Part shown: piece after piece, positions 3,278 through 62,267 of the stretch
Layout: the number at the start of each line of letters is the position of its first letter
Numbering within the stretch: position 1 is the stretch's first letter
Source of the DNA: a virus
Virus record (IMG/VR): IMGVR_UViG_3300042197_002234
Location: 64,001 to 128,000 of that record
Direction: 5' to 3' (one strand)
Length of the DNA: 64,000 nt
The notes under the pieces: generated by a model
What the model was told of the DNA's origin: nothing
Databases searched by the model: none
What the model saw: the letters and a program-made list of their open reading frames with translations, nothing else
Program-made: the position numbers and the translations under genes

Positions 3278-4003
3278 ATGGTACAAAAGAAAAAAACAAA
3301 CTCAACTTCAGAGTCCGAACCAAAATACAAAACAAAGAAAGAATTAATTTCTCACATAATTAAGAAAAAGACAAAAGAAAAGTTTTTATCTGAAAGTCAA
3401 AGAAAATACTATGATTATTTAATTAACAGTCAAATAACAATCTGTTCAGGTCCCGCGGGTGTTGGTAAAAGTTATATAGCTATGAAGGCAGCAATTGATT
3501 TGTTGTCTGACCCAACAACACCATATGAAAAAATTATAATAGTAAGGCCCGCAGTTGAAGCTGAGGAAAAATTAGGTTCATTACCAGGTGGTGTTGAGGA
3601 AAAATTAGACCCGTATATTTTCCCATCGTATTACTTAATGAATAAAATTATTGGTAAAGAAGCTAGAGAAAAATTAAAAGAAATTGATGTGATTGAAGTG
3701 TTCGCATTAGCTTACATGAGAGGTATGAACATTGATAACTCTATCTTAATTTTTGAAGAGGCTCAAAATTCAACCCCAAGTCAAATGAAATTATTATTGA
3801 CAAGGATTGGATTTAATAGTAAATTCTTTATTTCGGGGGATTTAGAACAAACTGATAGATATAAAGATAAAACTCATTCAGGTTTGTGGGACGCTTTGAA
3901 AAGATTTAAAGATATTGAAAGTATTAATACTTTTGAATTTGATGATAAAGATATTGTTAGAAATCCATTAATTACCAAAATATTAAAAAGATACGAAGAA
4001 TGA
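3278..4003 (+). CDS. phoH: PhoH-family ATPase
   Basis: GPAGVGKS Walker A, RPAVE, LPG, YMRG, EEAQN, GDLEQTD, DIVRNPLI. Confidence 0.95.
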   Translation: MVQKKKTNSTSESEPKYKTKKELISHIIKKKTKEKFLSESQRKYYDYLINSQITICSGPAGVGKSYIAMKAAIDLLSDPTTPYEKIIIVRPAVEAEEKLGSLPGGVEEKLDPYIFPSYYLMNKIIGKEAREKLKEIDVIEVFALAYMRGMNIDNSILIFEEAQNSTPSQMKLLLTRIGFNSKFFISGDLEQTDRYKDKTHSGLWDALKRFKDIESINTFEFDDKDIVRNPLITKILKRYEE

Positions 4004-4596
4004 GAATTGGTGTAGAAATTAACGGGGTTTTAAGAAATACTTTAGGTAAAGTAGAACAAACTTATCAAAAATTTATGATTGATAAGACTGAAGGTATTGA
4101 AACTGACGATGATTTTATTTATGAAATTAAAAAACCAATAACCTCATTATCAATTCAAAATCATTTTACTTTTAAAGATGAGGAAGAACTATATTCTTTT
4201 TTATATGAAGAATTTCCCATGGAGATTTTTGGTCATTCTCAATCAACAGAATATTCAACCTTTAATGATTTAAATGAAATCTACGTTAAATTAAGAAACG
4301 ACCATGATTTTATTATAGTTTCAGATGAAATTGGTAAATCAAAACCAGCATCTTTATTCTTCTTATCTAAATTTGGGTGTGAATTTGAAAAAGTAAAATT
4401 TTATAGTAATACAACAATAAATTCAATGTGGAATGAAATTGATGTTTTACTTACGGCAAATCCCGCCTTATTATTAGAACATCCGTTAGATAAAGTATTA
4501 ATAAAATATAATACTGAATATAATAACGAAATTATAACAAAATACGAAATAAACAAAATAAAAGAACTTGAAGAAGTTATTAAACAATTAAAATAA
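4000..4596 (+). CDS. HAD-like 5'(3')-nucleotidase-like protein
   Basis: MRIGVEINGVLRN resembles a degenerate 'IGIDIDGVL' HAD motif I. Confidence 0.45.
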   Translation: MRIGVEINGVLRNTLGKVEQTYQKFMIDKTEGIETDDDFIYEIKKPITSLSIQNHFTFKDEEELYSFLYEEFPMEIFGHSQSTEYSTFNDLNEIYVKLRNDHDFIIVSDEIGKSKPASLFFLSKFGCEFEKVKFYSNTTINSMWNEIDVLLTANPALLLEHPLDKVLIKYNTEYNNEIITKYEINKIKELEEVIKQLK

Positions 4597-26857: not shown

Positions 26858-27052
26858 ATGATTATTGTAAAAGTAGACAAAAATTCTAATTTGGAAAAGG
26901 CCTTAAAAGTTTACAAAAGTAAAATTATTAAGACAAGACAACTTTCTGAAATTAATAACAGAAAAGAGTTTGTTAAAAAATCGGTTAAGAGAAGACAACA
27001 GATTTTAAAGGCTAAATACGTACAAAAAACATTTAAATCAAATAACGATTAA
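26858..27052 (+). CDS. rpsU: Ribosomal protein bS21
   Basis: M.IVKV...NLEKALK.YK.K..KT..L.E...RKEFVK.SVKRR..I.KA.Y; 64 aa; antisense within the head genes. Confidence 0.9.
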   Translation: MIIVKVDKNSNLEKALKVYKSKIIKTRQLSEINNRKEFVKKSVKRRQQILKAKYVQKTFKSNND

Positions 27053-38053: not shown

Positions 38054-40096
38054 ATGATAGAATCAATGGATAATGGTAACAAAGGTAAAACACCTAAAAC
38101 AGGTTCAGAATCTTCAACTCCTGTACTTGATAACTTTAGTCGAGATTTAATTAAATTAGCTGAGCAAGGTAAGTTAGACCCTGTAATTGGTAGAGAAAGA
38201 GAAATTACAAGAATTGCTCAAATTCTATCTCGTAGAAAGAAAAATAACCCGATTATTATAGGTGAACCTGGTTGTGGTAAGACGGCAATTGTTGAGGGAT
38301 TAGCAATTAAAATTTTCAATGGAGATTGTCCTCGTAATTTAATGGATAAAAGAATTGTATCTCTCGATATGACATCGATTGTTGCGGGTACAAAATATCG
38401 TGGTCAGTTTGAGGAAAGAATGAAAGTTATTATTGAAGAGCTACAAACAACTCCAAATACAATTGTGTTTATCGATGAAATTCACACTATTGTTGGGGCA
38501 GGCAATTCTTCAGGTTCTTTAGATGCTTCAAATATTTTTAAACCCGCACTTGCTCGTGGGGAAATTCAATGCGTAGGGGCGACAACTCTTGATGAATATC
38601 GTAAGAATTTTGAAAAGGATGGGGCTTTAGAACGTCGTTTTCAAAAGGTTATTGTAGATGCTGCCACTAAAGAAGAAACATTAGAAATACTTTTAAACGC
38701 TAAAGACAAATATGAAACATTTCATAAAGTTTCATTCTCAAATGAAATATTAAAATTATGTGTGGATTTAGCAGATAGATATATAACTGACCGTGAGTTT
38801 CCCGATAAGGCTTTTGATATTATTGATGAGGTTGGAGCTCGTAGTCAGGTCGAAATTAAAATGCCTGAGATAATTGAAAAATTAAAACAGGAGGCGGCTC
38901 AGGTTAAATTAGATAAACTTGAGGTGGTTAAAAGACAGAACTATGAAGAAGCTGCAAATCTTAGAGATAAGGAAAAACGTATTCTAACCAAATTAGAAAA
39001 TGAAAAAGTTAAATTTGAACAAGAACTTTTAACAAGTAAAAAAGAAGTTTTACCTGAATTGGTTTATGAGGTTGTTTCTAACATGACCAAAATACCAATC
39101 AATAAATTAAATTCAGATGAAACTAAATCTTTATCTGAACTTGAAAATGTTTTATCAAGTAAAGTAATAGGTCAATCTGAAGCGGTGTCAAAAATTGCAA
39201 AGTCAATCCGTCGTAATAGAATCGGAATTAAAGACCCCAAAAAACCTATTGGTTCATTTATTTTCTTGGGTTCAACAGGGGTTGGTAAAACATATTTAGC
39301 AAAACAATTAGCAAAAGAGATTTTTGGTAGTGAAGATAACATGATTCGTGTGGATATGTCAGAATACCAAGAGAAACACACCATCTCACGTTTGATTGGG
39401 GCACCTCCTGGATATGTGGGATATGATGAAGGTGGTCAATTAACCGAACAGGTTAAAAACAAACCTTACTCAGTGGTTTTGTTTGATGAGATTGAAAAGG
39501 CAAATAAAGATATTTTTGCAACTCTTCTACAAGTTTTGGATGATGGTCATTTAACTGATGGTCTTGGACGTAAAATTAACTTTAAAAATTGTGTTATAAT
39601 TATGACATCAAATGTTGGTGTTAAAAAACTACAAGATTTTGGTGTTGGTGTTGGATTTGAGACGAAGGCAAGTTCTTATATTAAAGAAGAACAAAAACGA
39701 GATATGTTAAAGAAAGAACTTAAAAAGTTTTTTGCACCTGAGTTTTTAAATAGGATTGATGAAATTATTATCTTTAATTCATTGGTTAAAGATGATGTTA
39801 AAAAAATTGTTAAGATTGAACTTGAGCAATTAATAAAAAGATTGGTAGGTTTAAACTATAATGTAAAGTTTGATGACACAATTTTAGAAATGATTTCTGA
39901 AGTAGGGTTTGATGAAATGTATGGTGCTAGACCTATTAAAAGAGCAATTCAGGATAAGTTGGAGGATTTCATATCTGAAGAGATACTTAAAGGTTCTATA
40001 GTTGAAAATACCGAATATACTTTAGTTTCGGAAAACAATGAGGTAAAATTTAAGGGTGAGAACAAAAAGGGGAAAAAGAAAAAAGAGGGTGAATAA
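38054..40096 (+). CDS. clpC: ClpC-like AAA+ unfoldase lacking the N-terminal domain
   Basis: GEPGCGKT, FIDEIH, UVR coil (YEEAANLRD), GSTGVGKT, LFDEIEK, VGF ClpP-docking loop, GARP. Confidence 0.9.
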   Translation: MIESMDNGNKGKTPKTGSESSTPVLDNFSRDLIKLAEQGKLDPVIGREREITRIAQILSRRKKNNPIIIGEPGCGKTAIVEGLAIKIFNGDCPRNLMDKRIVSLDMTSIVAGTKYRGQFEERMKVIIEELQTTPNTIVFIDEIHTIVGAGNSSGSLDASNIFKPALARGEIQCVGATTLDEYRKNFEKDGALERRFQKVIVDAATKEETLEILLNAKDKYETFHKVSFSNEILKLCVDLADRYITDREFPDKAFDIIDEVGARSQVEIKMPEIIEKLKQEAAQVKLDKLEVVKRQNYEEAANLRDKEKRILTKLENEKVKFEQELLTSKKEVLPELVYEVVSNMTKIPINKLNSDETKSLSELENVLSSKVIGQSEAVSKIAKSIRRNRIGIKDPKKPIGSFIFLGSTGVGKTYLAKQLAKEIFGSEDNMIRVDMSEYQEKHTISRLIGAPPGYVGYDEGGQLTEQVKNKPYSVVLFDEIEKANKDIFATLLQVLDDGHLTDGLGRKINFKNCVIIMTSNVGVKKLQDFGVGVGFETKASSYIKEEQKRDMLKKELKKFFAPEFLNRIDEIIIFNSLVKDDVKKIVKIELEQLIKRLVGLNYNVKFDDTILEMISEVGFDEMYGARPIKRAIQDKLEDFISEEILKGSIVENTEYTLVSENNEVKFKGENKKGKKKKEGE

Positions 40097-42018: not shown

Positions 42019-42107
42019 GAATATTTATCTTAACAATAAATATTAACTTATTTGGATATTCAAAAAAGTTTCGTATATTTGTATAAGAATTAAGTTCTTT
42101 AACATAT

Positions 42108-42502
42108 GGGGGTAACTCGGAATTGACTGACATAGTTGGTTATTCGGGGCACGCAGTGAGAGGGTTCCTATCACTTAAATCTATGGAGTCAACGATTAGA
42201 CGGCAACGTTCTAAACAAAATGGCGACTATCGGTCTTATCCGTGAAGACGCTGCGGTTGTAGCCTAAGGGATTAGGAAACACCATTCGGGTCGGGAGGAC
42301 ATTAACCCAGGAACAGAAGTCCTTATCAGGTGTGGTTTCTATCTTAAAAGGAACAAGTGGAGGATTAGTTCTCAGTAAACCGAACCACTTTAAAAATAAG
42401 GGAATTGTGAAATTTCGGAACATTAGCTTAAATGTTGTCCTAAGCGTGTAGTCCTTAGTAGTCAAGATGGACAAGACGACGGTTCGAACCCGTCTACCTC
42501 CA
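42108..42502 (+). ncRNA. ssrA: tmRNA
   Basis: 5' GGGGGTA..AATTGAC; 3' T-arm GACGGTTCGAACCCGTC + TACCTCCA (G3.U70); tag ORF 42202-42267 GNVLNKMATIGLIREDAAVVA*; TATATTTG promoter 42074-42081. Confidence 0.92.
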
Positions 42503-42506
42503 CTTA

Positions 42507-43549: not shown

Positions 43550-44400
43550 CTTAGGCTGAGAATACACCTTTTGTTGAGAACCTTTAGGGACATTATTGTT
43601 TCTTCCCGTTTCCACTTCCTTTTGAGAAGTATTTCTCAGTGACGGTTATTTAGGTGAACCACTCCTTGAGGTTTGAATTACTCTCATCTTACTTGACTCT
43701 TTCCGAGGATGCCTCCCCAGTTCGTCCTTGCGGGACTAAAGGTTTTTCGGATAACTACACGTTGGCTTGGGACCTCAGTGTGCAATGAACGGCTCATTAC
43801 TAAGTAGTCACCTTTCATTCAAACCTGACGGACACTTTTCCTTTTATTATTATTAAATGGTCTTTAATTTCAAATAAAGAGTTTTGTGTCGTGGATTGTC
43901 GAAGTAGTGGTCCGTCTGAGGATTTGTTATCTTTTGAACAACAAAATACCAAACTACTCCGTGAGATGTCCCCACCTCCATACTTCAAGACTACTTCGAG
44001 AAAATCCCTTTGGTAAAGGAAATTCAAGGATAATGTCGGCACCACCCGTTTGTTATCATACCTTTCGGTTTTAAGTATCCTATGATATTGGAACCCTCAA
44101 TAATGATTTTGGAAAACCATGTTTTGATTGATTCCTACGGGTTATTCCTATTGGTGTTCCCACCTCAAACAGACGACCCACATCGCCTGTTCATCTAACC
44201 ACTTTCCCTACAGCGTTGCCCTCGGTACTAAAGGTTAAACGGTATCCCGCTTGTGTACTCGACCTCGGTTTCCCAAGACGCAAATCTGTCAACACAACAG
44301 ACTCACTTTATCCCACTTTCGTGGTTTATTTAACGACCATACACGGCCGATTATCGTTTTCAAGTTATCATCACTCCGAAGAGTTACTTTCACCTGATGG
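43550..44400 (-). ncRNA. GOLLD-like giant ornate RNA (~850 nt)
   Basis: GC-richer, no credible ORF, many GNRA/UUCG hairpins; the segment GGAGTAG..ATTTTGTTGTTCAAAAG..ACACAAAAC..ACGGGAAGAAACAATAA..CAGCCTA (43960-43552) resembles my recollection of the conserved GOLLD 3' half. Confidence 0.6.
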
Positions 44401-44413
44401 ATAATTCAATAAG

Positions 44414-44741
44414 TCAAAGAACTTTTGAGAGTTGTATCTGAATCGTTGTCATTCTCAATTGTTTTACAAAGTTAAGAAGATTTTTTCTATTTGTCAAATT
44501 TTTCTTAAACTTTTTTTTTGATTACTATAACCGTTGTGGTAATATGTTTCACTTACACTTTAAATGCGAAGGACATCTGCTTTATTTCATACAGTTGAAA
44601 GTTTGTCCCGTAGTCACTTTCCTCACATACAACAGTAGCCCTACGGACCTAGACTGTTTCTGTAACCAATATTTTCAAAGAACTTTTGAGAGTTGTATCT
44701 GAATCGTTGTCATTCTCAATTGTTTTACAAATTTAAGAAGA
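44414..44741 (-). repeat. Direct repeat pair: promoter - hairpin - boxA-like unit
   Basis: 44414-44470 identical to 44675-44731 (57 nt, 261 nt apart), extendable with 1 mismatch to 44480/44741. Confidence 0.95.
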
Positions 44742-44781
44742 ATTTTTTAATCTTCCAAATTTTTAAAGAACTTTTTTTTAA

Positions 44782-52096: not shown

Positions 52097-52939
52097 TTAA
52101 TTTGTAGTACAATTAACAAATTCGTATCCATTACTTGTTTTTCTCCAAACAATAAATACAAGTTCAATTTTACTCAAATCCCAATTGGAATTATAATCAA
52201 TAACACGGGACCAATGGTACACCTCACCACTTGACAAATTGTTAAAAATTTCTTCACCGAAAGCTCCTGATGTGGTTGCGGATTTAGCCAATACGTGGTG
52301 ATGAATGTGGGGATTTTGAGAACTACCATTTTGAGATGCCGTAATCTCTTTATGTAAAAATAATGCAGACATGGTATATACACCTGATAAATTTTCAAAG
52401 GATTTAATATACACATTAACATTTAATTTACCAGCGTTTTTACCCGCACCTTGGGTTATGTGACTACCAATAGATAATTTTGGCGTTTGACTATTTTTAT
52501 TTGTTATTTCACCTGGTATTCCTGAAGTACTTGTACCTACAAAATTGTCATTGACAAAGAAATTAGGCGTGCCTGTATACTGCCATTTTGTAGAAAATTC
52601 ATCAACCAAAGGACCGTTGTCAGGTGTGGTTAACCCATCGTTAATTTGTAAAGACATTGCCAACACATTACCTTTATGGTTGTTATATAATTCCTCAAAT
52701 CTAGTGACACCCCATCCACCACAAGGACCACACCAAGTTGCGGTAAATTTACCAAAAATGGAGTTTTGTGTACTATCAACATACACACAAGACCCGTCAT
52801 TTATAATCGCATTTGGGTTATAATTAACCGATTTTGAATCGGTGCATCCTTTAATTGCCGAATCATCATCAACCAATAATGTTGGTTCTTGACAACTAGC
52901 CAATATAAAGAATAATAAAAATAATAAGTAGTTTTTCAT
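52097..52939 (-). CDS. Omp28-related thioredoxin-fold lipoprotein
   Basis: Lipobox LASC, GCTD..S.NYNP.A..DGSC repeat, TATWCGPC, GTP.F.V, C-terminal Ig-like domain with H.HVL. Confidence 0.75.
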   Translation of the reverse strand: MKNYLLFLLFFILASCQEPTLLVDDDSAIKGCTDSKSVNYNPNAIINDGSCVYVDSTQNSIFGKFTATWCGPCGGWGVTRFEELYNNHKGNVLAMSLQINDGLTTPDNGPLVDEFSTKWQYTGTPNFFVNDNFVGTSTSGIPGEITNKNSQTPKLSIGSHITQGAGKNAGKLNVNVYIKSFENLSGVYTMSALFLHKEITASQNGSSQNPHIHHHVLAKSATTSGAFGEEIFNNLSSGEVYHWSRVIDYNSNWDLSKIELVFIVWRKTSNGYEFVNCTTN

Positions 52940-53504: not shown

Positions 53505-53555
53505 AATACAAAGATACAAAAAAAATCTGAACCAAAAAAATATTGGTAAAAAAAG

Positions 53556-53629
53556 TGGACCCTGCAGGGCTTGAACCTGCGACCCCTGCATTATGAGTGC
53601 AACGCTCTAACCATCTGAGCTAAGAGTCC
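53556..53629 (-). tRNA. tRNA-Ile2/Met (CAT)
   Basis: Full cloverleaf, loop CT CAT AA, C4-G69, A73 favours Ile2. Confidence 0.85.
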
Positions 53630-53819
53630 TAAAAATAAAAAATGATGTGGGGTATTCCTATTTAGTTTAAATTAACCAGTAGTCTGTTAATGTACACTTG
53701 TTGGTTTTACATCCCCACACCAATAACACACTCATAAGCATTCTACTTCCAGCTCCGAGAAATCGTATCTAACTTAGCCCATCTCACCGCTGTATGGGTA
53801 CTTAAGTTTATGTGTTTTG

Positions 53820-53891
53820 TAGCCCCTACGGGAATCGAACCCGTCTTTTTAGGATGAAAACCTAATGTCCTAACCGATAGACGAAAGGGCC
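53820..53891 (-). tRNA. tRNA-Glu (TTC)
   Basis: TTAGG TT TTC AT CCTAA; T-loop TTCGATT. Confidence 0.9.
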
Positions 53892-53949
53892 ATAAATAAA
53901 AGGTGTTGAATCATCCCTACGCCATTATAGGAACACCTTTTGTTTTAAT

Positions 53950-54425
53950 ATTTGGCGAATTAATATTCCTACCTATATTCCCAAGATTCGTCAGAACATA
54001 GTAACCATCCAAGGTAGGCCTATACTATTACACTCCGTCCATATTTACTCACCTAATCAGATTAGTCATAGGTTTTTCAGATACAGCGTTCAGTGCTACC
54101 CTCAGGACATCTTCACCCTACCCCATAGTTACGTGGTGGTCTCACTCGGAAGAAGAGTGTGTATTGTAGAATTGTCCAGTATTTCTACAACTTGTGGATT
54201 GTATTATGACTAATTAAAGCCCCTAACCCCCTTAATCCATAATGGGGAACTCTTGTTTTAAAGATTCCAACATACCTGAAAGAACTTCCCCTTCTCAGTG
54301 AACACCGTTTATAAGGTGTTATATGTTTTTCACTTTGTGTGTATCTATCCCCCATAGCCCCAAAGACTTCTAGTCGGGGTTCACACACCATAACAGTCGA
54401 GTACTACTGTTAATCGTGGGGTCAT
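53950..54425 (-). ncRNA. Candidate ~470-nt multibranched ncRNA in the tRNA array
   Basis: Perfect helices 54061-54070/54205-54214, 54164-54171/54183-54190, 54391-54397/54406-54412, and others. Confidence 0.55.
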
Positions 54426-54429
54426 TTGC

Positions 54430-54521
54430 TGATTAAAGGGAATCGAACCCAATCCTCCGACCCCGTTTACCCCTATGAGGGGGCCACTAGGGTCAGTATG
54501 CCCATTACATCATAACCAATC
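54430..54521 (-). ncRNA. tRNA-like RNA with extended anticodon arm (apex CAT)
   Basis: D-like and T-loop (GGGTTCGATTCCC) present; weak acceptor stem. Confidence 0.5.
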
Positions 54522-54568
54522 GTCAGTTTCGAACCTGACAGTTCAAGGTTAATTACTCCTTGAGTTTG

Positions 54569-54646
54569 TTGCGATTTGTGGACTCGAACCACACAGGGGG
54601 TGCGACCCAACTCGGTTCATGAGACCGACCTTACACCTGTATCGCA
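54569..54646 (-). ncRNA. D-arm-reduced tRNA-like RNA (CAT) with long variable arm
   Basis: TCGGT CTCATGA ACCGA; variable arm GGG/CCC; TGTGG TTCGAGT CCACA. Confidence 0.6.
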
Positions 54647-54651
54647 GTTTT

Positions 54652-54736
54652 TGGTACTCGGAGCGGGACTCGAACCCGCACGGACAATGTCCAGCAGATT
54701 TTAAGTCTGCCTTGGCTACCTTTACAACACCCGAGC
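54652..54736 (-). tRNA. tRNA-Leu (TAA)
   Basis: GCAGA CT TAA AA TCTGC; variable arm; encoded CCA. Confidence 0.95.
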
Positions 54737-54808
54737 GTTTATTTCAAAGAACACTACAAAGATAAAGAACAAATTTCATATGAACAATACCTTTATAATT
54801 TTTTTTTG

Positions 54809-54912
54809 TCCACTCTGTTGGATTCGAACCAACTTACTCACTCTATATTCGGATACTGCAGTATCAGGCGATATAGAGGTCATCGTGTTTTACCACATAA
54901 CACTAAGAGTGA
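54809..54912 (-). ncRNA. tRNA-like RNA with extended anticodon arm
   Basis: Acceptor TCACTCT/AGAGTGG, D arm GTGTT/AACAC, T arm GTTGG TTCGAAT CCAAC; long stem CTCTATAT/ATATAGAG + GATAC-TGCA-GTATC. Confidence 0.65.
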
Positions 54913-54917
54913 ATTTG

Positions 54918-54991
54918 TAGTCGGGGTGGGAATTGAACCCACGACCTTGATGATATAAGCATCCTGCTCTCGACCCCTGAGCTACCCGACC
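54918..54991 (-). tRNA. tRNA-Ile (TAT)
   Basis: GGATG CT TAT AT CATCA; full cloverleaf. Confidence 0.88.
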
Positions 54992-54997
54992 AAATGC

Positions 54998-55205
54998 CCC
55001 CACCCTGAGATTCCAGGTGAGTAGATATATCGGTTTTCTTTCTTTCAATAAACCTGTGGGTCTTACCCTCTTAAAATTAGTCAACACTACTGGGAGGGAT
55101 TGTGTCGGTTCCCTTTGTTCCCACGATGTCCCACTCGCGCCGTAGACATTCTGCGGAATCATTCTTAAAGTCTTGATTCGAAGACTCTGAGTATCTCTTA
55201 CTCAT
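54998..55205 (-). ncRNA. Candidate structured RNA
   Basis: Hairpins tgagta/tactca, agtctt/aagact, ccgcaga/tctacgg, gtggg/cccac. Confidence 0.4.
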
Positions 55206-55207
55206 TG

Positions 55208-55279
55208 AGCTTCCACCCAGGGTCGAACTGGGGACTACTGATTACAAGTCAGTTATTTTACCTGCTAAACTACAGAAGC
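55208..55279 (-). tRNA. tRNA-Thr (TGT)
   Basis: ACTGA CT TGT AA TCAGT. Confidence 0.92.
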
Positions 55280-55289
55280 TTATTTATCG

Positions 55290-55436
55290 TATCTCCGATG
55301 GGAATCGAACCCACCTTGTAAATTACTTGTCAATTGCTCTGACTTATCTCTACAAACTAGTATAAGTAGTGTTAGGCCAATTAACCATCATTTACCCACT
55401 CACTGTTTTTGGTGCGACCTCAACAGATACGGAGAT
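55290..55436 (-). ncRNA. tRNA-top-half RNA with a non-tRNA ~115-nt body
   Basis: Perfect acceptor ATCTCCG/CGGAGAT + A73; T arm GTGGG TTCGATT CCCAT; no anticodon arm. Confidence 0.65.
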
Positions 55437-55442
55437 GTTTTG

Positions 55443-55522
55443 TACCGAAGGAGAGACTCGAACTCTCACGCCATATGCAGATGCTTCTAAAACATCCGTG
55501 TCTACCATTCCACCACTTCGGC
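55443..55522 (-). tRNA. tRNA-Leu (TAG)
   Basis: GATGT TT TAG AA GCATC. Confidence 0.92.
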
Positions 55523-55633
55523 AATTTGTGGGTAGGGTCCTCCCACATTAGACTTAAGGTTTCGGATTCTTTAAAGACAATTCCTAAATGTCAACCGCCC
55601 GCATGTCCTTCACCTTAAAGCGGGAGCCCCTTA

Positions 55634-55709
55634 TGGAGCGAGAGACGAGATTTGAACTCGCGACCCCAACCTTGGCAAGGTTGTGCTCTACCAACTGAGC
55701 TACTCCCGC
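55634..55709 (-). tRNA. tRNA-Gly (GCC)
   Basis: CAACC TT GCC AA GGTTG; CCA encoded. Confidence 0.95.
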
Positions 55710-55714
55710 AATTA

Positions 55715-55914
55715 AAAGAAACTTTCCTTCTACGCTCACCGTAGTTTTGGATTTTACTGATGGTTGGTTCCCCATCACCTGTTATGAGTGCACCATAGAG
55801 CAGGGTCCATCACAGAGTCCTTCGGGTCATGTACCTTCGTTATAGTTGCGACCTATTTGAAGCCGAAGTACCTTTCAACGGTGCTAATCCGTCTTCTGTA
55901 AGGAAAGGTTCTTT
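55715..55914 (-). ncRNA. Candidate 200-nt multibranched RNA
   Basis: 14/15-bp closing helix 55715-55729/55900-55914 enclosing at least 4 hairpins. Confidence 0.55.
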
Positions 55915-55917
55915 TTG

Positions 55918-55990
55918 AGCAGGTGGAGGTAATCGAAACCTCATCTTCAGAGTGGAAATCTGACATAATATGCCATTATACGACACCTGC
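55918..55990 (-). tRNA. tRNA-Gly (TCC)
   Basis: TCAGA TT TCC AC TCTGA. Confidence 0.9.
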
Positions 55991-56085
55991 GTATTCGAGT
56001 CAGAGTAGTCACGGCCACCTCTGTTCCTTCTGACTCTTATTATAACCGTGGCAAAATGTGGCTCGACCCAAGTTATAATCATTAG

Positions 56086-56160
56086 TTGCGGGGGTAGGAT
56101 TCGAACCTACGTCATTCGGCTTATGAGACCGAGCTGGAACCAACTCCAGTCCACCCCGCC
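56086..56160 (-). tRNA. tRNA-Met (CAT), initiator-like
   Basis: TCGGT CT CAT AA GCCGA; 1:72 mismatch. Confidence 0.85.
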
Positions 56161-56165
56161 ATTTG

Positions 56166-56237
56166 CGGTCCGTGCGGGAGTCGAACCCGCCACACTGCCG
56201 TGACAGGGCAGCATTATAGCCGATTAACTAACGGACC
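56166..56237 (-). tRNA. tRNA-Asp (GTC)
   Basis: CTGCC CT GTC AC GGCAG; G73. Confidence 0.93.
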
Positions 56238-56243
56238 TAATTG

Positions 56244-56318
56244 TGGAGACAGTGGGAATTGAACCCACCACACTTTCCTTGCAAGGGAAAATCGCCAAGC
56301 CTTGGTACATGTGTCCCC
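56244..56318 (-). tRNA. tRNA-Ala (TGC)
   Basis: TTTCC CT TGC AA GGAAA; G3.U70. Confidence 0.93.
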
Positions 56319-56414
56319 ATTTTTTTTTCTTCACCAATATGTCAAAGAACCTTTATCTTTTTAACAACACTACAAAGTTACAAAAGAAATTTTAAAAAAA
56401 CAACATCCTTGAAA

Positions 56415-56446
56415 AACAAAAAACCCACCTTTTTATGGGTGGGTTT
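56415..56446 (-). terminator. Attenuator terminator 1
   Basis: AAACCCACC-CATAAAAA-GGTGGGTTT TTTG. Confidence 0.9.
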
Positions 56447-56471
56447 GGTATTTCATAGTGTTAGTTTAAAA

Positions 56472-56543
56472 TCATACCATACCCACCTGAGTCAATCCTA
56501 TTGCTTCAGTTGTGCCTAAAAGTATGATATCTAAATTTCTCAT
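56472..56543 (-). CDS. Leader peptide 1 MRNLDIILLGTTEAIGLTQVGMV (not in the ORF track)
   Basis: ATG 56543, TGA 56472; A-rich upstream; last codons complementary to the terminator 5' strand. Confidence 0.8.
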   Translation of the reverse strand: MRNLDIILLGTTEAIGLTQVGMV

Positions 56544-56616
56544 TTTTTGCGTTATTGTTTTTTCTTAAATATACCCATTTTTAAAAAAGTATCAATATTA
56601 AGTTTAAAAATACCGA

Positions 56617-57283: not shown

Positions 57284-57342
57284 ATTATTTCCGATTTTGT
57301 TATACAAAGATACAACAAAATTTCAAACTACCAAAACTTTTT

Positions 57343-58695: not shown

Positions 58696-59241
58696 TCATT
58701 TTGATTCAAACTTTTTAATAAAATTTTCACGATAATTGTCAATTATTTGTGAAATTTCACTTCTATACTTTGAGTGTATGTAGTGATGGTGTGTCGGACA
58801 TAACGGTATTAGGTTTTCTATTGAGTTATTAGTATGAACTTCATCGTAGTGGTGAACCGCAACTATTTTATTTTCACCACAAACAACACATTTGTGTTCA
58901 TGATGTTCAAAACAGATTCTACGATAACCATTTTTAGTTTCCGAATATTTACCCCAATTAGGGTTATTTTCACCACTTCTAAAATAAGTATTAGAACAAG
59001 AATGAGAACATGTAACTTTTTCATCTCTATTACCTTTTGAAGTTTCAAAAGATTTGTTACAAACAGGACATTCTTTAATTATTCTATTATAGATTAATTT
59101 TCTACTCCTCAAATGACTAATATCCACCCCATTTTGGTTTATGAATGATTCAAACTTTTTTCTATTTGACCCATTATCATATCCAAACATTTTTATTATC
59201 GCTTCTGACTTAGTTTTCGATGTTTTAATTATATCCTCCAT
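58696..59241 (-). CDS. HNH endonuclease inserted in the tRNA array
   Basis: CPVC..CSHSC, CVVC, VHHYDE.HTNN..ENL.PLCPTHH; late motif 59245-59253. Confidence 0.85.
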   Translation of the reverse strand: MEDIIKTSKTKSEAIIKMFGYDNGSNRKKFESFINQNGVDISHLRSRKLIYNRIIKECPVCNKSFETSKGNRDEKVTCSHSCSNTYFRSGENNPNWGKYSETKNGYRRICFEHHEHKCVVCGENKIVAVHHYDEVHTNNSIENLIPLCPTHHHYIHSKYRSEISQIIDNYRENFIKKFESK

Positions 59242-59782: not shown

Positions 59783-59854
59783 GGTGTAGGGACGGTACCG
59801 ACCCGTCTTATCTAGTTCCACAAACTAGTGCATCACCTTAATGCTTCAAACACC
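59783..59854 (-). tRNA. tRNA-His (GTG), divergent
   Basis: CTAGT TT GTG GA ACTAG; G-1/C73; atypical T-loop GTCGGTA and 2 acceptor mismatches. Confidence 0.7.
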
Positions 59855-60435: not shown

Positions 60436-60569
60436 ATATTTTTTCTATTTCAAAGAACCCTTTTCGTCTGGGGTGTAGGTAACCCTATCAAACCTACACC
60501 CCCATCGTTTGTGAATACAAAGTTACAAAACATTTTTCTAACTAACAAGTACCCACTTATTTTTTTTTG

Positions 60570-60649: not shown

Positions 60650-60719
60650 TTGCGTGTTCGGGGTTCGAACCCGATTGACCTTCCTTATGAGAGAAAGTTC
60701 TTTTCCCCTAAGCCACGCA
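60650..60719 (-). tRNA. tRNA-Met (CAT), divergent D arm
   Basis: TTTCT CT CAT AA GGAAG; TCGGG TTCGAAC CCCGA; short D arm. Confidence 0.6.
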
Positions 60720-60797: not shown

Positions 60798-60830
60798 ATT
60801 TTAGGTTACCAATATGTCAAAGAACCCGTA

Positions 60831-60865
60831 AAACAAAAAACCCCGAACTTTTTATGGTTCGGGGT
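60831..60865 (-). terminator. Attenuator terminator 2
   Basis: ACCCCGAAC-CATAAAAA-GTTCGGGGT TTTTTGTTTT. Confidence 0.9.
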
Positions 60866-60897
60866 CTGTTATCTGTTTTACTTTCAAATATCCACAA

Positions 60898-60987
60898 TTA
60901 TTCCGAACCAATATTTTGCACACGTGGATACCAGCAATTTTTAAATTGCGACTTACTGATAATGACCATATGTTTATTAGTTCTCAT
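60898..60987 (-). CDS. Leader peptide 2 MRTNKHMVIISKSQFKNCWYPRVQNIGSE (not in the ORF track)
   Basis: ATG 60987, TAA 60898; TAACTTTG promoter 61011-61018; last codons complementary to the terminator 5' strand. Confidence 0.8.
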   Translation of the reverse strand: MRTNKHMVIISKSQFKNCWYPRVQNIGSE

Positions 60988-61047
60988 TGTATTTTAATTT
61001 ATAAGTATTACAAAGTTAAGAAAAATTTTAGACAAGTCAAACTTTTT

Positions 61048-61317: not shown

Positions 61318-61551
61318 TTAAATGGTTTCGTCAATTTTATCTTGAATTTCAATAATTTTTGATTCAATGTATCTTTCTAATTTTTCTGACACATTAAGAT
61401 ATTGTTCCCTTAGTTTATGAAATTCTTCATCATTAATTTCTTTAAAAGAACTATAATGCTTGAAACAATAGTGGAATCCTTCCGCACCTATTCTGTATCG
61501 AACCATTTCAAAGTTCTCTAATTCTTCATGTAAATAATCTATATTACTCAT
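61318..61551 (-). CDS. Hypothetical protein
   Basis: Coupled ORF. Confidence 0.6.
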   Translation of the reverse strand: MSNIDYLHEELENFEMVRYRIGAEGFHYCFKHYSSFKEINDEEFHKLREQYLNVSEKLERYIESKIIEIQDKIDETI

Positions 61552-62267
61552 TGGTTTAATTTTCTTTTACAGTTATTACAAAATTCTTTACGGTTAGTAC
61601 CATTAACTTTCATTAAACAGTCTTCGTCGTCGCAGTGATTTAGACCAAAGTTGTGACCTAATTCATGATTAGCAACATTCTGTAGGTTAGAAATTCTATA
61701 GTTACCGTTAATCTTTAATTGATAAGTACTAACAACAGCGGCGTCATGGTAAAATCTTGCGTAACCACTAATTAATTCAAGGTTATTCTCATGAGAACAC
61801 AAAGGATGATTAGTAACATATACGTGACGACCATCACCATCACCTTCTTCCAAGTTTAAAGTTTCAAGAGCATTAACATATTCACCGTTAATGAAATAAC
61901 GAGAGCTAGGGTTTGAATGTGGATTACCGATTTTAGTTTCTAAACCGTAAAAATTTTCGATTCCCTGGCAAACAGTCTCCAAATCTTCATGACTGTAATC
62001 ACCAAAACCATGAACATATACAATGTTTTTCGGTTTTTTAGTTTCAGATTTAACAACAGGTTTAGTTGATGGTTTATTTTTTACATCAACTGATTTACCA
62101 TATTTACCTAACTTATGTTCTTTGTCATAAGAATCCGCATATTCAGCAGCACTTTGTTTGAATTTATCAATACTATAGTTGTGTTTTTCGGCAAGTTCAA
62201 ATAAAGAACCAACAATTACTACAACAATACAAAGATTTACAATTGATTTTAATGGTGATGTTTTCAT
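61548..62267 (-). CDS. Membrane-anchored metzincin zinc protease (archaemetzincin/M54-like)
   Basis: N-terminal TM, HELGHNFGLNHC..CLM..FC..C. Confidence 0.85.
   Translation of the reverse strand: MKTSPLKSIVNLCIVVVIVGSLFELAEKHNYSIDKFKQSAAEYADSYDKEHKLGKYGKSVDVKNKPSTKPVVKSETKKPKNIVYVHGFGDYSHEDLETVCQGIENFYGLETKIGNPHSNPSSRYFINGEYVNALETLNLEEGDGDGRHVYVTNHPLCSHENNLELISGYARFYHDAAVVSTYQLKINGNYRISNLQNVANHELGHNFGLNHCDDEDCLMKVNGTNRKEFCNNCKRKLNQ

Follow-up and report, generated by a model that had tools for sequence, protein, structure and literature searches.

A candidate leader-peptide attenuator ahead of a tRNA gene block in a T4-like phage of Bacteroidota-type hosts

The amino-acid operon attenuators of enterobacteria include the thr leader, with its Thr and Ile codons, the ilvGMEDA leader (Ile, Leu and Val), trpL and hisL. 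Leader-peptide attenuation also acts on a component of the translation machinery in the pheST attenuator, which has the pheM leader. The locus described here resembles the enterobacterial leaders in having a short open reading frame before an intrinsic terminator, and a terminator and an antiterminator that are mutually exclusive; a predicted upstream helix would correspond to their protector helix. As in those leaders, the codons of the short frame correspond to the product that would be sensed. The locus differs in that the regulated genes are tRNAs rather than enzymes, and in that the panel comprises 8-14 amino acids, each represented by 1-4 codons in scattered positions, where the classic leaders have tandem runs. 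Moreover, it lies in a phage, carries Bacteroidota-type signals without a Shine-Dalgarno sequence and has a boxA after the terminator.

The pheST attenuator shares with this locus a target in the translation machinery, but pheM has Phe codons only and controls a tRNA synthetase, whereas here a mixed codon panel precedes the tRNA genes themselves. As with T-box riboswitches, tRNA status would decide between termination and read-through ahead of genes for translation supply; T-boxes, however, bind uncharged tRNA directly and need no open reading frame. No T-box (Rfam model, specifier loop and T-box sequence) was matched at E up to 10, and the Rfam leader families Trp_leader, Phe_leader and Thr_leader stayed below their gathering thresholds (Phe_leader 25.8 against 55, Trp_leader 19.9 against 41, and also 27.6 against 55 bits). 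Full-text literature searches turned up no description of tRNA genes controlled by a leader-peptide attenuator.

The window, by which is meant the whole stretch of 64,000 nucleotides that was analysed, is bases 64001-128000 of the 195.5-kb IMG/VR virus record IMGVR_UViG_3300042197_002234, estimated to be 65% complete. The source is a T4-like lake phage of Bacteroidota-type hosts, and the window codes for a T4-type major capsid protein, portal and terminase as well as the ribosomal protein bS21. All 25 tRNAs called by ARAGORN are on the minus strand, between 53555 and 62393. The region ahead of tRNA block 1 is likely to be a ribosome-mediated, leader-peptide transcription attenuator that gates upstream read-through into the block. 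Slow reading of the leader codons by the ribosome probably lets more transcription into the block-1 tRNA genes. A preliminary description of this DNA had placed block 1 under the control of such an attenuator. A translated-leader switch between terminator and antiterminator is still the best reading, given its recurrence, its covariation and a composition that tracks the block, but it is not the sole control, as an internal promoter and a boxA follow the terminator. The features are collected in Table 1.

Table 1. Positions of the attenuator features and associated genes in the window
Feature	Position	Strand	Description
Promoter-like element ahead of leader 1	56566..56595	-	TTGATAC-N15-TATATTTA; TATATTTA box ends 22 nt before the ATG; pattern match, putative
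Leader ORF 1	56472..56543	-	23 codons + TGA; ATG at 56543, TGA 56474-56472; product MRNLDIILLGTTEAIGLTQVGMV
Segment A	56521..56535	-	Codons 3-8; pairs with B' (56478-56465) in ribosome-free MFE folds
Segment B, antiterminator 5' strand	56475..56487	-	GGTGGGTATGGTA; last four codons and final G of the preceding Gln codon
Segment C	56438..56450	-	TACCAAACCCACC; common to antiterminator and terminator, includes the whole 5' stem
Intrinsic terminator	56412..56446	-	9-bp stem; AAACCCACC / loop CATAAAAA / GGTGGGTTT = 56446-56421, then U-tract TTTGTTTTT
Internal Bacteroidota-type promoter	56373..56404	-	GTTG-N20-TAACTTTG; putative, motif-based
rrn-type boxA 19-mer	56333..56351	-	GGTTCTTTGACATATTGGT; between internal promoter and tRNA-Ala (56316)
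tRNA block 1	53555..56316	-	Ala, Asp, Met(CAT), Gly(UCC), Gly(GCC), Leu(UAG), Thr, Ile(UAU), Leu(UAA), Glu, Met(CAT)
Attenuator 2 (sister element)	60808..61041	-	Promoter 61041-61011, leader ORF 60987-60898, terminator 60867-60838, boxA 60826-60808
tRNA block 2	60797-57807	-	Preceded by attenuator 2
Ribosomal protein bS21 ORF	26858-27052	+	64 aa; PF01165, E=2.5e-10

Competing helices in the leader RNA

Computation establishes the leader open reading frame, the alternative pairings and how they covary, the agreement of leader and tRNA set, the boxA identity and the promoter motifs. On re-check, the coordinates previously given for the reading frame, the antiterminator pairing and the terminator were all correct. 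As had been proposed, segment B complements segment C at 12/13 positions, and the pairing uses the entire 5' stem of the terminator. The B:C duplex has an energy of -21.2 kcal/mol against -8.0 kcal/mol for shuffled B, and an equally good duplex was found in 0/200 shuffles and with 0/28 non-cognate terminators. The whole leader 1 region folds with z = -3.8. The claim that the antiterminator excludes the terminator was borne out in that B:C outweighs the terminator hairpin (-13.2 kcal/mol) and prevails in folds of the full-length RNA with a ribosome placed at codons 3-13.

Across related contigs, cognate B:C duplexes have a mean of -11.6 kcal/mol against -7.0 kcal/mol for non-cognate ones, and long cognate complements accompany quite different terminators (contigs L042, L046, L057 and L007). 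In an alignment of 10 family-1 sequences (A3) the helix is 96% paired, with 3/8 pairs compensatory and a score that 0/500 shuffles reach, and every slid register scores below the observed one. The window and contig L025 were left out of these column-wise counts because their B:C register differs from that of the other family-1 members, and per-sequence duplex energies were used for both.

Four segments, rather than three, would make up the switch, with an extra upstream hairpin, A:B', predicted in the MFE folds of the window, where it overlaps B:C by just 4 nt. An equivalent long-range helix is given by RNAalifold for 10 relatives, in which compensatory changes at 2 of its pairs amount to weak covariation. 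When a ribosome is masked onto the window RNA, an A site at codons 3-13 leads to the antiterminator. The terminator is obtained from codon 14 onwards, with the ribosome on the stop codon, and with no ribosome at all. The ribosome-free fold consists of the A:B' hairpin (56535-56521 with 56478-56465) together with the terminator. Segment C starts 21 nt past the stop codon, and a ribosome at the stop would mask B and not C.

Co-transcriptional folding, which had been put forward as a check, was run and gave a growing transcript that passes from A:B' to B:C once C is complete, and then to A:B' with the terminator once D is complete. The barrier from B:C to the terminator is estimated at about 8.5 kcal/mol. 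In a transcript without a ribosome, A:B' may retain B and so favour termination, an outcome that is uncertain because A:B' and B:C overlap by only those 4 nt and because of this barrier. A clean switch is obtained in equilibrium masked-ribosome folds of the window and of contigs L025, L017, L030 and L042, but not in most relatives, where the terminator wins at equilibrium regardless of the masked position. For these, kinetic control must be assumed and the fold before D emerges was used instead. The pre-D folds have the same polarity across families, with C sequestered except when the ribosome stands on the last 7-9 codons, which makes the general logic a race between ribosome and polymerase.

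From these features we infer translation of the reading frame, ribosome stalling, read-through and promoter activity. RNA polymerase would come from the promoter-like element directly ahead of leader 1 or from the promoter at 57335, and the 23-codon leader would be translated whilst A:B', B:C and C:D (the terminator) compete within the RNA. A lead ribosome delayed in roughly the first 13-15 codons, almost all of which are for Leu, Asp, Ile, Gly, Thr, Glu or Ala, would leave B free to pair with the emerging C, thereby blocking the terminator and allowing the polymerase to continue through boxA into the tRNA genes. A ribosome already on the final codons or at the stop codon would sit over B, so that C:D forms and transcription stops near 56415. 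With no ribosome, B would be held by A:B' and termination favoured. The outcome would be negative feedback, in that tRNA synthesis rises when the codons that the block serves are decoded slowly. For block 1, which has its own host-type promoter and boxA, the attenuator would add a regulated component to a constitutive one.

Alternative helices and covariation do not in themselves need translation, and the same three pairings could be set by a factor other than the ribosome, such as a TRAP-like or PyrR-like protein or a tRNA that binds directly as in a T-box. This is unlikely. Neither a T-box nor any other Rfam family was found, the best matches being the sub-threshold hits to Phe_leader (25.8 bits) and Trp_leader (19.9 bits). 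Such a switch would also leave unexplained the open frame, the ATG-AAA or ATG-AGA starts, the indels of 3 nt, the fixed distance from stop codon to stem and the agreement of the block with the leader's amino acids and codons.

Leader composition and tRNA content

Block 1 holds the 11 downstream tRNAs that had been listed in the preliminary description, and 8/8 of their amino acids are present in the leader peptide. After Met1, 17/22 residues are from block 1, which is a modest excess over random proteome windows (p=0.024 and 0.008). The 5/22 residues from outside the block are R2, N3, Q19, V20 and V23, and codons 4-18 specify block-1 amino acids at 15/15 positions. The regulatory codons are scattered, with 1-4 per amino acid and no tandem runs.

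At the level of codons the agreement is looser. Individual leader codons had been paired with individual tRNAs of the block; ATA does match Ile(UAU). Non-standard wobble is needed for Leu(UAG) to read CTT and for Thr(UGU) to read ACT. The codon-level match of leader 1 alone is not above synonymous expectation (12/16 against 11.3). Isoleucine codons differ between the two leaders, with leader 1 using ATA and leader 2 using ATT and ATC, and the block-2 tRNA is Ile(GAU). When the representatives of 11 families are pooled, the block anticodons can read 200/232 codons by strict wobble rules, where synonymous sampling leads to an expectation of 178.4 (p<5e-5).

The leader of attenuator 2 contains all the block-2 amino acids, and its codons 4-26 are 23/23 from block 2, counting His(GTG) and CAT tRNAs. 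These are two atypical tRNAs that default ARAGORN missed and relaxed settings recovered, His(GTG) at 59783-59853 (-) and the CAT-anticodon tRNA at 60650-60719 (-). The latter has the anticodon loop CTCATAA, and His and Met occupy the corresponding places in relatives.

Partition of the block-exclusive residues between the two leaders of this genome gives 20:4 against 5:14 (Fisher p=2e-4), and an unrelated pair of leaders in L042 gives p=7e-5. In different families the block amino acids found in the block's own leader are 8/8, 12/12, 13/13, 14/14 and 17/17. Leaders of other families mirror their blocks in the same manner, for example MKLLNNIELNLRRLEPSLGSPLIR before Glu-Asn-Leu-Arg-Met-Leu and MKNRMNICDYRNINNINECEDYALYGLEVS before Asp-Tyr-Cys-Met-Ile-Asn-Arg-Arg. 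Amongst homologues, an amino acid occurs in the leader in 93/96 cases when its tRNA is in the block and in 19/48 when it is absent, a count that ignores phylogeny.

Leader 1 has homologues of the same length class in L025 and in other contigs, and the alignment indels within the reading frame are multiples of 3. Between the window and L025 the core residues are scrambled, with swaps solely among block-1 amino acids. As the core is scrambled and yet confined to the amino-acid set of the block, selection appears to act on composition and not on the peptide sequence.

These comparisons bear on whether the promoter, small reading frame and terminator are a gene in their own right, which yields a functional micropeptide or a small RNA and is placed before the tRNAs by coincidence. 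Several family-1 peptides are indeed alike (MKNLHILLIGGDLAE...), and the terminated transcript would have a length of about 130-150 nt. A gene of this kind is nevertheless highly improbable, given that the window and L025 keep the composition of the core and not its sequence, that unrelated leader families each reflect their own block and that the 3' codons are set by pairing with the terminator. A small hydrophobic toxin was considered separately and rejected, since leader 1 contains D, E and several T residues and leader 2 is polar.

Promoters and boxA around the terminator

A promoter-like TTGA(C/T)AC...TATATTTA element is conserved in sequence ahead of the family-1 leaders, the TTGACAC...TATATTTATAAC arrangement being kept in L004, L005, L009, L018, L030, L034, L050 and L056. 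Other promoter-like sites in the window match the pattern TTTG-N19-TAnnTTTG, which we take to be that of Bacteroidota promoters. A canonical promoter at 57335-57305 would also feed the leader 1 region, with no minus-strand terminator in between. The preliminary description had stated that the motif upstream of the leader also precedes bS21, and this is so: the window has two exact copies of GGTATATTTA, one 22 nt ahead of the leader ATG and one 39 nt ahead of the bS21 reading frame, against a chance expectation that we estimate from base composition at about 0.5 exact copies.

The -7 box of the internal promoter, TAnnTTTG, lies +36 to +40 after the terminator and is kept in most family-1 loci whose flanks diverge. 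In L005 the internal promoter is absent and boxA follows the terminator directly. With a promoter and a boxA between the terminator and tRNA-Ala, block 1 could be transcribed without passing the attenuator, which would then modulate only upstream read-through. At attenuator 1 a promoter would thus reach the tRNAs without the terminator in its path, and at attenuator 2 and in L005 the terminator lies on the only path.

By its sequence, the 19-mer after the terminator is the boxA of Bacteroidota rRNA-operon spacers, an identification made here. Two exact copies are present in the genome, one behind each attenuator. The 19-mer is found exactly in 57 IMG/VR contigs, almost all with tRNAs beside it, and its 17-mer core in >120 genome stretches, most of them from Bacteroidota. 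In the three records checked, from Pedobacter, Flavihumibacter and Niabella, the core lies between the spacer tRNAs and the 23S rRNA. Like the boxA of rrn operons and of lambda nut, the 19-mer contains GTTCTTTGACA, and 17 nt are identical to the sequence at the boxA position of Bacteroidota rrn spacers. What sets it apart from the rrn boxA is its use by a phage, in which it stands before tRNA arrays, inside them, and before the GOLLD and tmRNA genes. BoxA works with NusB and S10 (PMC10931766). As boxA lies after the attenuator, the regulated stop would be passed before the polymerase is modified, if boxA has its predicted role.

None of 120 bacterial stretches with the 17-mer has an array of five or more same-strand tRNAs, and the three checked with Rfam are rRNA spacers. 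Further boxA-like copies of GTTCTTTGA are present inside both tRNA blocks, at 54744-54752 and 60450-60458 (-), and in many related contigs the full 19-mer is placed between tRNAs, as though antitermination factors were taken up anew at those points.

Two other genes of this phage, those for GOLLD and tmRNA, serve as a control, as both have a promoter and a boxA with neither leader nor terminator. GOLLD RNA (RF02032, 327.7 bits) is at 43553-43961 (-), downstream of canonical promoters and boxA-like sites at 44414-44759, and the phage tmRNA (RF00023, 68.7 bits) is at 42051-42505 (+), with a TTTG-N19-TATATTTG promoter and the boxA-like GTTCTTTAA ahead of it. A canonical Bacteroidota promoter followed by boxA (GTTCTTTGACATATTG) was also seen in megaphages of gut and environmental origin, namely in Prevotella phage Lak-A2 (L180, 3990-4180) and in a 735-kb uncultured phage (L181, about 4000-4090). 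These two were rejected as relatives of the leader, with promoter and boxA only and no leader seen at those sites. No cultured relative of the leader was found among GenBank phages.

Recurrence in related contigs

The sister element, attenuator 2, has a 29-codon leader (MRTNKHMVIISKSQFKNCWYPRVQNIGSE) behind a canonical promoter, and no promoter lies between its terminator and tRNA-Gln. For a wider comparison, IMG/VR contigs with the same downstream 19-mer were taken, and terminators up to 160 nt (<=160 nt) upstream of a tRNA or boxA were considered. An ATG reading frame of 22-37 codons that ends 21-37 nt before the stem precedes 49/52 of these terminators, the three exceptions being one locus truncated at an edge and two reading frames with a GTG start. 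Such a frame is found in 34/36 distinct upstream regions, where shuffles lead one to expect 2.9. The 30 unique leaders start with ATG-AAA in 26/30 cases and with ATG-AGA in 3/30. The leaders fall into homologous families, and the cases of recurrence are therefore not fully independent.

It might be argued that the hairpin merely ends an upstream unit, made up of tRNA block 2 and three small genes, that block 1 is driven solely by its internal promoter and boxA, and that the short reading frame and the complement to the stem are functionless. The canonical promoter and boxA between terminator and tRNAs, both here and in most family-1 loci, would be in keeping with this, as would the modest statistics of leader 1 taken alone. 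It is very unlikely all the same. A leader frame stands before 49/52 such terminators, whereas shuffled upstream regions have one in about 8% of cases (2.9/36), segment B covaries with C, and leader composition tracks the tRNA block across unrelated families. Neither L005 nor attenuator 2 has an internal promoter to which transcription of the tRNAs could be left, and a conserved promoter-like element right before a bare terminator would be senseless.

Leader-peptide attenuation thus remains the preferred reading of the leader 1 region. Attenuator 2 and the family-1 element of L005, both without an internal promoter, fit its simple scheme. We lean towards the view that these elements form a class of multiplexed leader-peptide attenuators in large Bacteroidota phages, which sense, codon by codon, the decoding of exactly those codons that a block serves and boost that block when decoding is slow. 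If so, the supply of tRNA would be under product feedback, and the same device could raise an alarm in response to host defences by which tRNAs are cut or depleted. Trp-style attenuation would then be applied to tRNA genes, the first such case that we have found, and phages with large tRNA sets would dose them by demand. A response of the phage tRNAs to a shortage of host tRNA, or to a tRNA-cleaving defence, becomes testable. As natural and compact sensors, the elements would report the decoding capacity for many codons simultaneously, and would extend leader-peptide attenuation and the use of boxA to Bacteroidota phages. The combination of an ATG-AAA leader, a stop codon 21-37 nt before a terminator and a boxA could moreover act as a signature for the boundaries of tRNA operons in uncultured phages.

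Several other features were observed in and around the tRNA arrays. A freshwater-1 RNA (RF02979, 76.3 bits against a gathering score of 72) lies within tRNA block 1 at 55752-55814 (-), between the two tRNA-Gly genes; none was seen in 12 related loci examined. To our knowledge no host organism is known for this motif, which is found here in a T4-like phage. A permuted tmRNA (RF04321, 67.6 bits) is beside the tRNA array of a related contig (L057, 3-177, +). In tRNA block 2 an ORF of 181 aa (58696-59241, -) is inserted between Pro and Ile(GAU) and has a weak match to HNH_2 that is under the cutoff (E=0.005). Near or flanking the array are genes for a ClpB-like double AAA+ protein (38054-40096, +), an Omp28-like protein (52097-52939, -) and a zinc-metallopeptidase-like protein (61548-62267, -).
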